Source: Candidatus Aenigmatarchaeota archaeon
GTDB taxonomy: Archaea; Aenigmatarchaeota; Aenigmatarchaeia; QMZP01
Direction: 5' to 3'
Length of the DNA stretch: 13,256 bases
NCBI GenBank assembly: GCA_039091855.1
Contig: JAWCLA010000001.1
Span: 1 to 13,256 of the forward strand
Positions 665 to 8,573 of this stretch are shown one piece after another. The notes below the pieces were generated by a model. It had not been told where the DNA came from and made no database searches. It saw only the letters and a program-made list of their open reading frames with translations. The position numbers and the translations under genes are program-made. Each line of letters opens with the position of its first letter. The first letter of the stretch is position 1.

Positions 665-1845
665 AAGAGAGTTATGACATTGTAATTGTGGGTGGTGGAC
701 CTGCGGGCTCTTCTGCTGCAATGACTGCCGCAAGGGCAGGATTAAAAGTCCTTATGGTTGAGAAAAGGGCTGAGATAGGCTCTCCAAAAAGGTGCGGTGA
801 AGGGCTTTCAAGATCAGCACTGGAGAGGATGGGTCTTGATAAGGATGATGTGTGGGTGCGAAGGACAATATTGGGGGCCAGTGCCTACGCGCCAAACGGA
901 AAGAAGATAACTGTTGATTACAGGGGCCCTGAGGGATGGGTAATAGAAAGAAAGGTTTTTGACAAGTGGCTAGCGAAAAAAGCCGTTGACGCAGGGGCAA
1001 GGGTTTTGTCAAAGACTGACGCTGTTTCTCTGACAAAGAATAACGGGAAGGTTTCAGGCGTGACGCTTGAGTCAAACGGGAAAAGGTGGGACGTTGAGGC
1101 AAAGATTGTTATAGCGGCAGACGGGGTGGAATCAAAAATCGCAAGGGAAGCGGGAATAGACACAACAATAAGGCTTGCTGATATTGCCTCAAGCGTCCAG
1201 TTCGAGATGGCTGGAGTAAACATAGACCCTGACAGGATTGAGCTGTATTTCGGGAATGAGATTGCTCCTGCCGGCTACGCCTGGATATTCCCCAAAGGTG
1301 AGAAGGAAGCGAATGTTGGGGTTGGTGTCAGGAAGCCTTGGGCAAAAAAGACAGCACTTGAATACCTTACGGATTTTGTAAATTCCCGCCCTGGACTGAA
1401 AGACGGCTCTATCATTGAGGTTAATGCAGGCGGTGTTCCTGTTGGGGGGCTGATGGAAGATATGGTTACAGACAACTTTATGGTTGTAGGGGATGCCGCA
1501 CACCAGGTTAATCCTATACACGGCGGGGGAATAGGGGAATCGTTTGTGGCTGGAAGGATTGCGGCCCAAGTGGCTATAAAGGCAATCCGAAAGGGCGACT
1601 GCTCCAAAAAATCCCTTTCAGAGTATAACAAGCTGTGGTGGAAGGAGAGGGGAGAAAAGCTTCAAAGGCTTGTTAAGCTCAGGGAGGTTATGGAGTCCCT
1701 TTCTGACGAGGAGCTTAACTGGCTCGCAGGATACCTCACGGGAGAGGACCTGGTGGAATTCGCGCGCGCCTCAGGACTAAAGAAGCTTGGAATGATCCTG
1801 ATGAAGAAGCCCAAACTAATAAGATTGGCTAAAAAGCTGTTCTGA
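661..1845 (+). CDS. Geranylgeranyl reductase family FAD-dependent oxidoreductase (digeranylgeranylglycerophospholipid reductase-like)
   Basis: GGGPAG FAD-binding motif, KRCGEG, RKVFDKWL, ADG, PAGYAWIFP (PxxYxWxFP) and GDAAHQVNPIHGGGI (PxxGGG). At 394 aa it is a typical size for archaeal GGR. Confidence 0.92.
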   Translation: MKESYDIVIVGGGPAGSSAAMTAARAGLKVLMVEKRAEIGSPKRCGEGLSRSALERMGLDKDDVWVRRTILGASAYAPNGKKITVDYRGPEGWVIERKVFDKWLAKKAVDAGARVLSKTDAVSLTKNNGKVSGVTLESNGKRWDVEAKIVIAADGVESKIAREAGIDTTIRLADIASSVQFEMAGVNIDPDRIELYFGNEIAPAGYAWIFPKGEKEANVGVGVRKPWAKKTALEYLTDFVNSRPGLKDGSIIEVNAGGVPVGGLMEDMVTDNFMVVGDAAHQVNPIHGGGIGESFVAGRIAAQVAIKAIRKGDCSKKSLSEYNKLWWKERGEKLQRLVKLREVMESLSDEELNWLAGYLTGEDLVEFARASGLKKLGMILMKKPKLIRLAKKLF

Positions 1846-1859
1846 TTGACGATAATTCC

Positions 1860-1867
1860 TTTATTAA
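1860..1867 (+). promoter_or_regulatory. Putative TATA box for SRP RNA (TTTATTAA)
   Basis: AT-rich box 22-29 nt upstream of the predicted SRP RNA 5' end at about 1889. Confidence 0.6.
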
Positions 1868-1888
1868 TACTTCGTTTAACCTAATTAT

Positions 1889-2201
1889 GTAGGACTAGGC
1901 CGGGGTGCTCGGCGTACCCTGTAACCGCAAACCGTCGACATCACATCATTATTGGTTAATCCTTTAATGATGCGGCGACAAAGGCGGGGCCGAAGCCCGA
2001 GGGCGGCTTGCATTTACATGATGCAGCCCACATTCTCGACTGAGAAGCTTTGTCCTGCAGGACTGCTGTTATGGCGAACCAGGTCAGGGCAGGAATGCAG
2101 CAGCCTTAAGTCATTACAGCCGTGCTTGCAGGGTAGCGAAGCGGAGAAGAGGATGTGGAAACTCGTCATGCACTTGCATTCCCACCGAAGGCACGTCCTA
2201 C
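1889..2201 (+). ncRNA. ffs: Archaeal signal recognition particle RNA (7S RNA), containing a 42-nt putative intron
   Basis: Terminal helix GTAGGAC (1889-1895) pairs with GTCCTAC (2195-2201). The Alu domain reads GGCCGGGGTGCTCGGCGTACCCTGTAACCGCAAACCGTCGA...GCGGGGCCGAAGCC, with the UGU(NR) motif and loop-loop complementarity (UCGGCG/CGUCGA). Helix 8 has the SRP54-binding motif GAACC-AGGTCAGGGCA-GGAA-TGCAGCAGCCT. Helix 5 pairings include CCACATTCTC/GAGGATGTGG and GCTTTG/CGAAGC. Confidence 0.95.
1940..1981 (+). other. Putative bulge-helix-bulge intron (42 nt) in the SRP RNA helix-4 loop
   Basis: 5' strand CC-GTCG-[ACA]-TC and 3' strand GG-CGAC-[AAA]-GG form a 4-bp central helix with two 3-nt bulges. 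There is an internal stem CATCATTA/TAATGATG. Cutting after the 2nd nt of each bulge yields the canonical-looking CCGC-AAACCGTCGACAG-GCGG. Confidence 0.8.
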
Positions 2202-2205
2202 ACTA

Positions 2206-2212
2206 TTTTTTT
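2206..2212 (+). terminator. Oligo-T archaeal terminator after SRP RNA
   Basis: TTTTTTT lies just downstream of the 3' end of the terminal helix. Confidence 0.6.
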
Positions 2213-2237
2213 GTTGATTGACAGGTGTGACAACAGC

Positions 2238-2245
2238 TTATATTT
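2238..2245 (+). promoter_or_regulatory. Putative TATA box for ade (TTATATTT)
   Basis: Located 22-29 nt before the ATG at 2267, with no SD motif. Confidence 0.4.
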
Positions 2246-2266
2246 CTTTACAGGATATCTGATTAT

Positions 2267-3916
2267 ATGTTTTCGGTGAAAGGAAAAATTGTTGACGTGG
2301 TTTCAGGCAAAATAGATGACTCATACCTGCATATAGAAAACGGGAAAATAGTTTCGGAAAAGGGGAAACCTGAAAGGATTTTTGACTTCTCCAGCTTTTA
2401 CATAGTCCCTGGATTCATAGATTCGCACATCCACATAGAAAGCTCTATGATGACCCCTTCCTTCTTTGCAGAATCTGTAATTCCACACGGGACTGCTGCT
2501 GTTGTTGCAGACCCTCATGAGATTGCCAATGTTGCAGGAATAGAAGGCATACAATTCATGATGAAAGATTCAGAAAACTTGCCTGTCAGGGTTTTCTTTA
2601 CAGCCCCGTCCTGTGTGCCAGCAACCAATATGGAAACTTCAGGCGCTGTTATAGGAGCGGATGAGATAGAAAATCTTCTTAAAAATCCCAGAGTGGTCGG
2701 GTTGGGGGAAATGATGAACTTTCCAGGGGTTTTGGGTGAAGATCCTGAAGTGATGAAAAAAATAAAGGCAGCGAAAAAATCAGGGAAGGTCTTGGACGGA
2801 CACTGCCCAGGGCTGAAAGGCAAGGGACTGAAAAAATACGTAAAGGCTGGGTTGCAATCTGATCACGAGTGCACAAGCGTAGAAGAGGCGATTGAGAAGC
2901 TATCTGCAGGAATGTGGCTTATGATAAGGGAAGGCTCTTCAATGAAAAACCTGGAAGCCCTGCTTCCTGCTGTAAATGAAAAGACGTGGAAAAAATGCAT
3001 TTTTGTATCTGACGACATACATCCTGAAACAATATTGAAGGAAGGGCACGTTGACAGGATTCTCAGAAAGGCTGTCTCTCTCGGGCTTGACCCAATAACA
3101 GCAATGAGGATGGTTACACTCAATCCCGCAAAATACTTTTCCCTTGATGAGATTGGCTCTCTTGAGAAAGGGAAATCAGCCACCTTTGCGGTTGTGAAGG
3201 ACTTGAAGGGGTTTGAAGTGCTGGCTTTCTTTGTAAACGGGGAAATGATTTACCAGAAAGGGAAATTGCTTTGCAAAATCAAAAATCAAAACCCTCCTGA
3301 AAAAATCCGCTCATCTGTCAGAATTAAGACGTTCCTGAAAAAGGACCTTATGATTCCTTCAAACTCTGCCGTTAAGGTAAAGGTGATAAAGGTTCCTAAT
3401 GAAAAAACAGAAGCGGTTCTGGGATATGAGAACGGCTTCCTGAAGCCAGACATAGTGAATGATGTTCTGCCTGTTGTTGTTATGGAGAGGCACAAGGCAA
3501 CAGGAAACATTGGAAAGGGGTTTGTGCAGGGCTTTGGTTTGAAATCAGGTGCTTTGGCCTCAACCATTGCCCACGATTCCCACAACATAATCTGCGTCGG
3601 GGCTGATTACGATGATATGGTTTCAGCGATAGACGCTCTTAAAAATTCAGGAGGCGGCATTGTTGCCGTAAAAAACAGGAGAACGATTGCCATTCTGGAG
3701 CTTCCTGTCGCCGGGCTGATGGCACCCGATCCTGCTGAAAAAATAAGAATGAAGCTCGATTTGATACACTCGGCAGCAAGGGAACTCGGCTGCTCGCTTG
3801 AATCCCCATTTATGGCTCTTTCATTTCTGGCGCTTCCAGTTATCCCAAAGCTAAAATTAACGGACAAGGGGCTTGTGGATGTGGAGAGGTTTCAGATAGT
3901 GGATGTAAGGGGTTGA
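2267..3916 (+). CDS. ade: Adenine deaminase (AdeC family amidohydrolase)
   Basis: PGFIDSHIHIESSM, ADPHEIANV, PSCVPAT, GEMMNFPGV, DGHCP, SDHE, REGS, SDD, AHDSHN and LPVIPKLKLTDKGL motifs; 549 aa. Confidence 0.96.
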   Translation: MFSVKGKIVDVVSGKIDDSYLHIENGKIVSEKGKPERIFDFSSFYIVPGFIDSHIHIESSMMTPSFFAESVIPHGTAAVVADPHEIANVAGIEGIQFMMKDSENLPVRVFFTAPSCVPATNMETSGAVIGADEIENLLKNPRVVGLGEMMNFPGVLGEDPEVMKKIKAAKKSGKVLDGHCPGLKGKGLKKYVKAGLQSDHECTSVEEAIEKLSAGMWLMIREGSSMKNLEALLPAVNEKTWKKCIFVSDDIHPETILKEGHVDRILRKAVSLGLDPITAMRMVTLNPAKYFSLDEIGSLEKGKSATFAVVKDLKGFEVLAFFVNGEMIYQKGKLLCKIKNQNPPEKIRSSVRIKTFLKKDLMIPSNSAVKVKVIKVPNEKTEAVLGYENGFLKPDIVNDVLPVVVMERHKATGNIGKGFVQGFGLKSGALASTIAHDSHNIICVGADYDDMVSAIDALKNSGGGIVAVKNRRTIAILELPVAGLMAPDPAEKIRMKLDLIHSAARELGCSLESPFMALSFLALPVIPKLKLTDKGLVDVERFQIVDVRG

Positions 3917-6845: not shown

Positions 6846-8573
6846 ATGGACAGGGAAAAGGAAAGGGAGGTCTCTTCCCTTGACCTGAGGTTCTTTGTGA
6901 AAGAATGGGAATTCCTGAAAGGCGGATTCATAAGGAAGGTTTACCATTCAGGAGATTCTGAAAACTGGAAAGTTGTTTTTGAGGTTTTTGTTCCTCAGAA
7001 GGGAACCTTTTACCTTAATGTCTATCCAAAATGGATTTCTCTGGAAAGGTCAAAGGAACAGCTGGGAGAGAAACCCTCAGGGTTTTGTATGTTGTTGAGA
7101 AAGAATCTTTCAGGCAAGAGGATAGATGGCATTGATCAGCACGGGTTTGACAGGATTTTGGAGATATCTGTCGGTGGCTTGAGATTAGTTTTTGAATTTG
7201 TCCCGCCAGGAAACATAATACTTATTGACAGCCAAAACATCATAATAGGGGCATTGAAAACGAAAAAATGGAAGGACAGGGAGATAAGGGCTCGCTCCAA
7301 CTATCTATATCCTCCTGGAAGGCAAGACCCATTCTCTATGGGGTTTGAAGAGTTCAGTAGGTTTTTTTGCTCTGAAAAAAAGGCTGTTGCTGTGCTGGCT
7401 TCAGAACTTGGGTTCGGTTCTGCTTACGCGAACAAAATCTTCTCCGAGTCAGACATATCCACTGAAAAGCCAGCAAAGGAATTGAAAGAGGAAGAGATTC
7501 GCTTGATTTTTGAGAAAATCCGTACAGTTGAAAAAATTCAATCAGCCCCACCAAAGACCGAAAAAAATCAAGAAAAGGATAGACTGGAAATTATAGAACT
7601 GCAAAGAAAGGAAGCGCTTGAGAAATGGAAAGAAGCGGAGAGGGCTGCAAGGGAAAGGGCTGACGCAATATACAGGAAGTTTGACACAGTCGAAGCCCTG
7701 CTCGAAAAATTTTCAAAAAAGGAGGGGATGGGGTTCGAACCCATTATGAAGAGGGAAGGGCTTCACATCACTGTGAATCTCGATGGGGTTGATGTCACTC
7801 TCGATTTAAGGAAATCTGCACAGGAAAATGCTGCATACTATTACGAGCAGGCAAAGAAGGCAAGGAGAAAAATAAAGGGTCTTGAGCAGTCAATGGAAAA
7901 GCCCCTAAAAGAAAGGGTTGGAATTGATAGAGAACCTATTGAAGAGAAGAAAGGTTGGTACGAGAAGTTCAGGTGGTTTGTTTCCAGCGACGGGTTTCTT
8001 GTTGTGGCAGGAAAAAGCGCTGAGCAGAACGAGCTTCTACTGAAGAATTATGCAGAGCCCGAGGAATGGTGCTTTCACGCGGATGTGAAGGGGGCTGCCT
8101 TCGTTGTGGTGAACTCAGGTAAAAATGAGCCTCCTGAACAGACAAAAAAGGAGGCAGCTGAGTTTGCCGCTGCAAGCTCAAAGGCTTGGACAAGGGGGTC
8201 TGGAAGCGTTGATGTTTTTTCTGTTCAGAGAAAAAGCCTTTCAAAATCCCCTCCAACAGGAATGTTCCTTCCCAAGGGTTCCTTTATGGTTTATGGCAAA
8301 AGGGTGTGGTACAGGAATGTTCCTTTGAGAATGGCTGTTGGAGTTGACCAAAAAGGCAGGGTTGTTTCCGGGCCCGAGTCTTCTGTCAGCAAGGTTTCAA
8401 AATATGTTGTTGTTATAGTTCCCGGAGAAAAAAGGGCATCTGAATTGGCAAGGGAGATAAAATCCGAATTCATCAAAAAAGCAAGGGTTGAGGATGCTGA
8501 ATCAATACAAAGGCTTTCGCTGGAGGAGATAGAAAGACATATTCCTTTCGGAAAGGGTGAATTGATGCAGTAA
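6846..8573 (+). CDS. rqcH: Ribosome quality-control protein Rqc2/RqcH (NFACT family)
   Basis: NFACT-N motifs (SSLDL, PSGFCMLLRK, FDRIL, GNIIL, DREI...Y.YPP); HhH-like GFGSAYA; coiled coil ENAAYYYEQAKKARRKIKG; NFACT-R motifs (WYEKFRWFVSSDGFLVVAG, QNELL, FHADVKGA, LPKGSFMVYGKR). Confidence 0.92.
   Translation: MDREKEREVSSLDLRFFVKEWEFLKGGFIRKVYHSGDSENWKVVFEVFVPQKGTFYLNVYPKWISLERSKEQLGEKPSGFCMLLRKNLSGKRIDGIDQHGFDRILEISVGGLRLVFEFVPPGNIILIDSQNIIIGALKTKKWKDREIRARSNYLYPPGRQDPFSMGFEEFSRFFCSEKKAVAVLASELGFGSAYANKIFSESDISTEKPAKELKEEEIRLIFEKIRTVEKIQSAPPKTEKNQEKDRLEIIELQRKEALEKWKEAERAARERADAIYRKFDTVEALLEKFSKKEGMGFEPIMKREGLHITVNLDGVDVTLDLRKSAQENAAYYYEQAKKARRKIKGLEQSMEKPLKERVGIDREPIEEKKGWYEKFRWFVSSDGFLVVAGKSAEQNELLLKNYAEPEEWCFHADVKGAAFVVVNSGKNEPPEQTKKEAAEFAAASSKAWTRGSGSVDVFSVQRKSLSKSPPTGMFLPKGSFMVYGKRVWYRNVPLRMAVGVDQKGRVVSGPESSVSKVSKYVVVIVPGEKRASELAREIKSEFIKKARVEDAESIQRLSLEEIERHIPFGKGELMQ

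Follow-up and report, generated by a model that had tools for sequence, protein, structure and literature searches.

A collinear SRP RNA gene from Aenigmatarchaeota (DPANN) with a probable bulge-helix-bulge intron in its helix-4 loop

Can the gene for an SRP (7S) RNA be interrupted by a plain internal intron of the kind that is removed by the tRNA-splicing machinery? Bulge-helix-bulge (BHB) introns are known from tRNA genes, from 16S and 23S rRNA genes, and from a few mRNAs (cbf5). The question is raised by a stretch of 13,256 nucleotides from a member of the Aenigmatarchaeota, here called the window, in which an earlier note, made from the sequence alone, had recognised an archaeal SRP RNA gene with extra sequence in the loop of helix 4 and had interpreted the addition as a conventional internal intron of a non-permuted gene. 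The gene is indeed present. The Rfam model Archaea_SRP (RF01857) matches window positions 1888–2202 on the plus strand at full length (model positions 1–317, not truncated) with 139.2 bits, compared with a gathering score of 96.5, and leaves ∼43 nt unaligned after …CCGUCG. Since the model is matched in order, the gene is collinear and therefore not permuted; its 3′ part is not encoded upstream of its 5′ part, as would be the case in a Thermoproteus-type permutation. It is also the sole SRP RNA match in the assembly (G000; 689 kb in 38 contigs, 84% complete), and scores within the range of its intronless orthologues (139 vs 135–141 bits).

According to the Rfam alignment and an alignment within the genus, the 5′ exon (1888–1939, plus strand) comprises helices 2 and 3 together with the 5′ strand of helix 4 and its loop, while the Rfam alignment assigns helices 5 and 8 and what remains of helix 4 to the 3′ exon (1982–2202, plus strand), which contains the GNAR tetraloop of helix 8 (GGAA, 2092–2095). 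The gene is flanked by those for a geranylgeranyl reductase (661–1845) and an adenine deaminase (2267–3916). A TATA-like box (TTTATTAATA; 1860–1869, plus strand), read from the sequence, lies ∼20–28 nt upstream of the RNA start and is presumably the promoter; a similar box lies upstream of the SRP gene of G004. A run of seven T (2206–2212, plus strand), also read from the sequence, is likely an archaeal terminator. Six sequencing runs contain window positions 1700–2400, all of them DNA and labelled hot-spring metagenomes. ARAGORN detected no tRNA gene in the window. A T-arm-like motif at ∼7744 on the minus strand (5-bp stem and TTCGAAC loop, after which come a C-rich heptamer and a run of T) lies on the strand opposite to an NFACT-family ORF (6846–8573) and is probably due to chance.

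The predicted intron of 42 nt occupies positions 1940–1981 (plus strand), with cuts at 1939|1940 and 1981|1982 as given by the standard EndA rule; excising 1941–1982 instead leads to an identical product. Every pair and every bulge listed in the earlier note exists in the sequence. The central 4-bp helix consists of an exon strand, GUCG (1934–1937), and an intron strand, CGAC (1976–1979), which are accompanied by the bulges ACA (1938–1940) on the 5′ side and AAA (1980–1982) on the 3′ side (all plus strand). The intron-side helix (1941–1975, plus strand) starts with the pairs U1941-G1975 and C1942-G1974, continues after an A/C mismatch with 8 bp between 1944–1951 and 1965–1972, and is capped by a 13-nt loop. 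On the exon side, an outer helix of 2 bp (C1932-G1984 and C1933-G1983; 5′ strand 1932–1933, plus strand) could form. The core of a BHB motif, that is, a 4-bp helix and two 3-nt bulges on opposite strands, is thus present (features (4,2,2) with p = 52 and q = 94). When positions 1924–1992 were folded with RNAfold, both the minimum free energy (MFE) and the centroid structure contained the central helix, the 5′ bulge, and the intron stem (−23.8 kcal/mol; z = −3.5, with one of 200 shuffles being as stable), and the same local structure resulted from folding the whole gene. The outer helix is not part of the MFE fold. There, G1984 pairs with C1928 to close helix 4, as it does in the Rfam alignment, which would place the 3′ splice site within a 5×4 internal loop; ACA and AAA are both unpaired in this fold, and AAA becomes a 3-nt bulge only if 1932–1933 pair with 1983–1984. 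The fully strict form is predicted at −19.1 kcal/mol and is, thus, 4.7 kcal/mol less stable at 37 °C. The earlier designation as a “strict BHB” is therefore too strong: the exon-side 2-bp helix could form but competes with helix 4, and, as modelled, the motif has canonical geometry towards the intron and a relaxed one towards the exons. A box C/D guide within the intron was considered by eye and rejected, since an AUGAUG is present without a D box.

Structured RNAs offer many opportunities for such motifs: a naive BHB scan of whole SRP genes, which yielded between a few and several dozen chance matches in each, proved uninformative by itself. Of 5,000 dinucleotide shuffles of SRP positions 41–106, evaluated over 59 tolerant cut combinations, 92 contained a strict and 1,056 a relaxed BHB, and across 53 SRP genes the strict geometry is realised in 0.063% and the relaxed geometry in 0.7% of all (p,q) pairs. 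Taken alone, the motif in the window is only moderately unlikely to be a product of chance. The predicted fold also leaves room for the main rival explanation, in which the 42 nt are not removed at all but kept in the mature SRP RNA, where they would project as an extra hairpin from the loop of helix 4: the MFE structure of the whole gene retains every SRP helix and merely adds a hairpin, and the exon-side helix of the BHB is weak. The intron reading draws its support from the comparison with relatives.

Ten SRP genes were aligned at the genus level (that of the window, those of G001–G003, the partial gene of G004, and four full and one partial gene on metagenome contigs). The insert occurs in the window gene only and is missing from all nine others, a distribution that speaks against a retained segment. 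In G001–G003, the same two flanking genes are found, with amino acid identities of 82–84% (geranylgeranyl reductase) and 74–80% (adenine deaminase) to those in the window, which identifies the SRP loci as orthologous. Excision of 1940–1981 by the EndA rule had been expected to restore the usual loop size; the resulting helix-4 loop is exactly as long as that of the intronless gene of G003, from which it differs at two positions. When excisions were scored by alignment to the intronless relatives, the one dictated by the BHB rule raised the score from 350 to 399, the unconstrained maximum being 400. A search of metagenomes with a 25-nt exon pattern returned five contigs, all intronless, and thus no other intron-bearing allele. 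The intron appears to have been acquired recently in this species, and its presence and absence inside one genus make intron gain datable.

Beyond the genus, inserts at the same site were found in three further genomes. In G018, which belongs to another genus, excision of 43 nt (alignment score of 290, compared with a maximum of 295) yields the central helix CGUC/GGCG, the bulges AAA and AAU, and an inner helix of 4 bp. In G021 and G124, which belong to one genus, the excised segments of 33 and 42 nt, respectively, sit at the alignment optimum and are delimited by GUCU/GGAC, two AUA bulges, an inner helix of 4–5 bp, and an outer helix of 2 bp. Relative to the conserved CCGUC, the cut sites in G018, G021, and G124 are at most 1 nt apart, and, as judged by eye, the intron sequences of the window and of these three genomes are unrelated; near-identical cut sites combined with unrelated sequences suggest that the helix-4-loop inserts were gained independently. 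That the same-site inserts keep the 4-bp central helix and the 3-nt bulges, but not the sequence, is what the intron reading predicts for insert-bearing relatives and weighs against a segment retained in the mature RNA. A similar insert of 38 nt (CCGC/GUGG, two AAA bulges) lies a few nucleotides upstream in G035. The helix-4-loop insert of G021 (L037) contains a stretch that is identical to the Rfam consensus of the helix-8 tip, CCCGGAAGGGAGCAG. Model scores are low for the SRP genes of G021 (L037; 55 bits) and G124 (L055; 50 bits).

The position of the insert bears on a tertiary contact of the Alu domain. Across 35 sequences (34 distinct), the positions corresponding to 1910–1913 (CGGC in loop 3, plus strand) and 1934–1937 form a 4-bp helix with all cells paired; compensatory changes are found in three of the four pairs, one of which is represented by five pair types, and pairing falls to 45–59% in slid controls. 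This covariation marks CGGC as the tertiary partner of GUCG in the mature Alu domain, in agreement with the loop-3/loop-4 interaction described by Zwieb and Bhuiyan (2010; PMC2905702). GUCG at 1934–1937 is, therefore, both the exon strand of the BHB and the partner of loop 3, and in the precursor CGAC of the intron rivals CGGC of loop 3 for it. The BHB exon strand overlaps with the loop-4 contact in the same way in G018, G021, and G124. For a retained segment, it is unexpected that the 3′ end should pair with precisely those four nucleotides on which loop 3 relies. Still, as the insert lies 3′ of the contact nucleotides in loop 4, it need not block the contact outright, which could in principle form in its presence; the competition would therefore constitute a structural conflict rather than proof of removal.

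Long SRP genes are not confined to the lineages mentioned so far. In an order-level sample, 16 of 37 full-length SRP genes exceeded 300 nt, the usual length being 264–290 nt; in a phylum-level sample, 21 of 141 did; and a hand count over both samples found a gene longer than 290 nt in 28 of the 160 genomes with a match. Of 41 related genomes, no more than 28 passed the Rfam cut-off. As an interruption lowers the model score of an SRP gene, the annotation of DPANN genomes is likely to miss SRP RNAs. For a survey, 53 genes (25 short and 28 long) were assembled, and inserts were defined purely by alignment to the nearest short gene with stiff gap opening; greedy BHB-constrained excision had mis-joined two inserts in G039. 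This resulted in 34 inserts in 27 genes. A 4-bp helix with two 3-nt bulges and at least 2 bp on one flank was present in 13 of the 34 at the alignment optimum and in 18 within 3 score points, compared with 0.85 and 2.0 expected, respectively; a 4-bp helix with at least five of the first six flank pairs was present in 10 at the optimum (0.22 expected) and in 14 within 3 points (0.53 expected), with expected values being the background rate of each geometry across all cut pairs and the ratios overstating significance because related genomes are not independent. Six of 34 had the 4-bp helix, both 3-nt bulges, and at least 2 bp on both flanks within 3 score points. The 16 inserts that fail the one-flank geometry within that margin include some that are BHB-like by eye with a mismatch (G035 and G039).

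Sites of the inserts include the UGUNR junction (G052 and G131), and others lie in the helix-4 loop, in helix 5 (G034 and G039), in the helix-8 tetraloop (G013, G019, G025, G033, G034, G036, G039, G054, G110, G157, and G171), and at two positions 3′ of helix 8. Those of the 11 relatives in helix 8 measure 31–86 nt and lie in or beside the GNAR tetraloop. According to our reading of the drawings, excision by the BHB rule rebuilds CCA-GGAA-UGG in G013 and CCC-GGAA-GGG in G157. An insert inside the helix-8 tetraloop would, if kept, destroy a conserved motif, which argues for the removal of helix-8-type inserts in the phylum and, by the same token, against retention as the general fate of such segments. 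Inserts of the helix-8 type were seen at the loci L003, L018, L023, L025, L032, L030, L035, L047, L046, and L045. In the SRP gene of G039 (L003), a 43-nt segment at 139–182, partly aligned as helix 6 by Rfam, shows strict BHB geometry (4,2,2) when excised at the alignment optimum and may be an intron instead of helix 6. Weighing the comparative evidence against a fold that would tolerate the extra hairpin, we consider it improbable that the 42 nt of the window gene are retained in the mature SRP RNA.

If the insert is an intron, the genome should hold the means to remove it. Two EndA genes are present, one of 408 amino acids (G000:C19; L039:129–1355, plus strand) and one of 198 (G000:C12; L038:1204–1800, plus strand). 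The 408-aa protein is of the three-unit type and aligns end to end with PDB 4fz2 (E 1.5e-97), which we take to be the three-unit ε2 EndA of ARMAN-2. The 198-aa, α-like paralogue reads AHSIRAR where 5x89 has AHSVRK and the 408-aa copy has AHSVKK. Relatives of the 408-aa EndA were confirmed at 45 loci, most of which are titled Aenigmatarchaeota, with the rest being mainly Micrarchaeota at 39–43% identity. The most likely candidate for cutting the SRP intron is the 408-aa EndA. The ligase RtcB is encoded as well (561 bits). As an in-genome control, the gene for tRNA-Glu(CUC) on contig C7 contains a 79-nt intron within a canonical BHB (4-bp central, 5-bp inner, and 7-bp outer helix). In all 38 contigs (689 kb), ARAGORN detected one plain tRNA gene and three with introns of 56–88 nt, while the Rfam tRNA model gave no match above its cut-off and T-arm motifs numbered only four; this scarcity reflects either contig ends falling at tRNA genes or heavy disruption of the tRNAs of this organism. 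A genome-wide search for 5S rRNA yielded only a weak match on the minus strand (G000:C1:37832–38000), whose 26.6 bits fall short of the cut-off (38) and whose 169 nt correspond to a model of 120 positions; cmscan of G000:C1:37300–38500 reported no 5S rRNA at E ≤ 0.001.

The presence of an intact RtcB is relevant to a second rival, according to which the transcript is cut but not rejoined, so that SRP RNA would exist as two pieces, of 52 and 221 nt, that stay associated through helices 2 and 4. The BHB evidence fits this scenario equally well, and base pairing in both helices does link the exons. With a ligase at hand, however, and with fragmented SRP RNA being, to our knowledge, without precedent, such a two-piece molecule appears quite improbable, more so than a retained hairpin.

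As to the physical reality of the insert, three runs of one study yielded Logan contigs that extend across all of it without a gap, and a contig from a fourth run, which belongs to another study, covers the 5′ junction and the 5′ part of the insert, again without a gap; the insert is not an assembly artefact. In the same sample, a 13-kb contig of another organism matches 1892–1936 and then continues with an intronless loop. That the insert reflects mobile-element damage (a small mobile hairpin) or a chimeric join impairing the gene is the least probable of the alternatives, as the contigs of four runs from two studies are gapless across the insert or its 5′ part, the sole SRP RNA gene found scores like intronless orthologues, and a blastn-short search of the 689-kb assembly with 1930–1992 revealed, besides the segment itself, only chance matches of 11–17 nt and no second copy, unlike a MITE-like element present in multiple copies. 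In run X3, which belongs to another study and represents a near-identical strain, a contig of depth 2.4 carries 61 letters in place of the 7 nt at 2115–2121. The replacement site (window 2114–2122) falls within SRP sequence that follows helix 8 on its 3′ side, close to the inserts of G005, G027, G037, and G040, and may represent a second intron polymorphism.

Together, the orthologues lacking the insert, the geometry preserved in relatives, and the coexistence of EndA and RtcB support the view that a conventional internal intron resides in a non-permuted SRP RNA gene, and we regard it as likely that 1940–1981 is a genuine BHB (tRNA-type) intron, inserted into the loop of helix 4 in this collinear SRP RNA gene of Aenigmatarchaeota. 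Its processing could then be envisaged as follows. Transcription from the TATA-like box to the T-run would generate a precursor of 315 nt, in which CGAC of the intron would pair with GUCG of the exon (1934–1937) to form the central helix and present ACA and AAA in 3-nt bulges. The splicing endonuclease would cut at 1939|1940 and 1981|1982, after which RtcB would ligate the exons to an SRP RNA of 273 nt, with the 42-nt intron probably being circularised. Only then would GUCG be freed to form the tertiary helix with CGGC of loop 3 (1910–1913), and the Alu domain be compacted, if the steps occur in this order. As the only SRP gene found bears an insert shaped for cleavage by EndA, SRP assembly in this organism probably depends on tRNA-splicing enzymes. 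If true, an essential non-coding RNA, that of SRP, would join the substrates of the tRNA-splicing machinery via a plain internal intron, and these reduced genomes would need EndA and RtcB for co-translational protein targeting.

A considerably bolder picture can be drawn from the survey, one that we offer as possible rather than probable. SRP RNA genes of Aenigmatarchaeota might have been colonised by BHB introns that are still mobile, independently, as it appears, at no fewer than five sites (among them the UGUNR junction, the loop of helix 4, and the tetraloop of helix 8), with gains and losses that separate species of a single genus and perhaps even strains, such that SRP assembly throughout the phylum would be gated by tRNA-splicing enzymes. 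The helix-4 introns would use the “kissing” tetranucleotide of loop 4 as the exon half of the BHB and mimic loop 3, thereby imposing a folding checkpoint on the Alu domain. Such genes would, furthermore, represent the “simple BHB intron” stage postulated by Plagens et al as the ancestor of permuted SRP genes.

How does the window gene compare with systems already described? The earlier note knew of no internal intron in an SRP RNA, and our search of full-text literature, which leaves most subscription journals outside its coverage, likewise found no description of one; the word “intron” is absent from a review of 81 archaeal SRP RNAs (Zwieb & Bhuiyan, 2010; PMC2905702). Circular segments of 7S RNA have been reported for Sulfolobus and Halobacterium and were not described as introns (Danan et al, 2012; PMC3326292). 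They are comparable insofar as parts of archaeal SRP RNA can apparently enter a cut-and-ligate pathway, but they derive from ordinary, uninterrupted genes. The BHB introns of archaeal 16S and 23S rRNA genes and of cbf5, covered at least in part by Nawrocki et al (2018; PMC6125680), are of the same type, likewise reside in a host gene other than that of a tRNA, and likewise involve the tRNA-splicing machinery, the latter being a prediction in the present case. They have been found in Thermoproteota and related lineages, in some cases as long introns with homing endonuclease genes, whereas the intron in the window has 42 nt and no ORF.

With respect to the enzyme, the genome of the window encodes a full-length homologue of the EndA of ARMAN-2 (Ca. 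Micrarchaeum; PDB 4fz2), which acts on non-canonical tRNA introns, but the putative substrate here is SRP RNA instead of tRNA. Cleavage of relaxed BHB motifs at non-canonical positions is reported for EndA of the ε2 and (αβ)2 types, and the same source gives ε2 as known only from relatives of Micrarchaeum (Kaneta et al, 2018; PMC5829648); compared with that range, most of the 45 loci found here are titled Aenigmatarchaeota. The closest parallel is the SRP RNA of Thermoproteus tenax and T. uzoniensis, which is encoded in permuted form, processed via a BHB, and circular (Plagens et al, 2015; PMC4731332). Both RNAs would mature via a BHB, the tRNA-splicing endonuclease, and RtcB, as predicted here from the sequence. 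Unlike in Thermoproteus, the window gene is collinear, its BHB flanks an internal intron of 42 nt and not the transcript ends, and its host belongs to the DPANN and not to the Thermoproteales. In the same study, a simple BHB intron is hypothesised as the stage from which permuted SRP genes arose (Plagens et al, 2015; PMC4731332), and the window gene, if its intron is genuine, would supply this hitherto only hypothesised intermediate. The mechanism proposed for the locus is known, whereas its host RNA was not found described in this role, and the locus belongs to a wider pattern in Aenigmatarchaeota.
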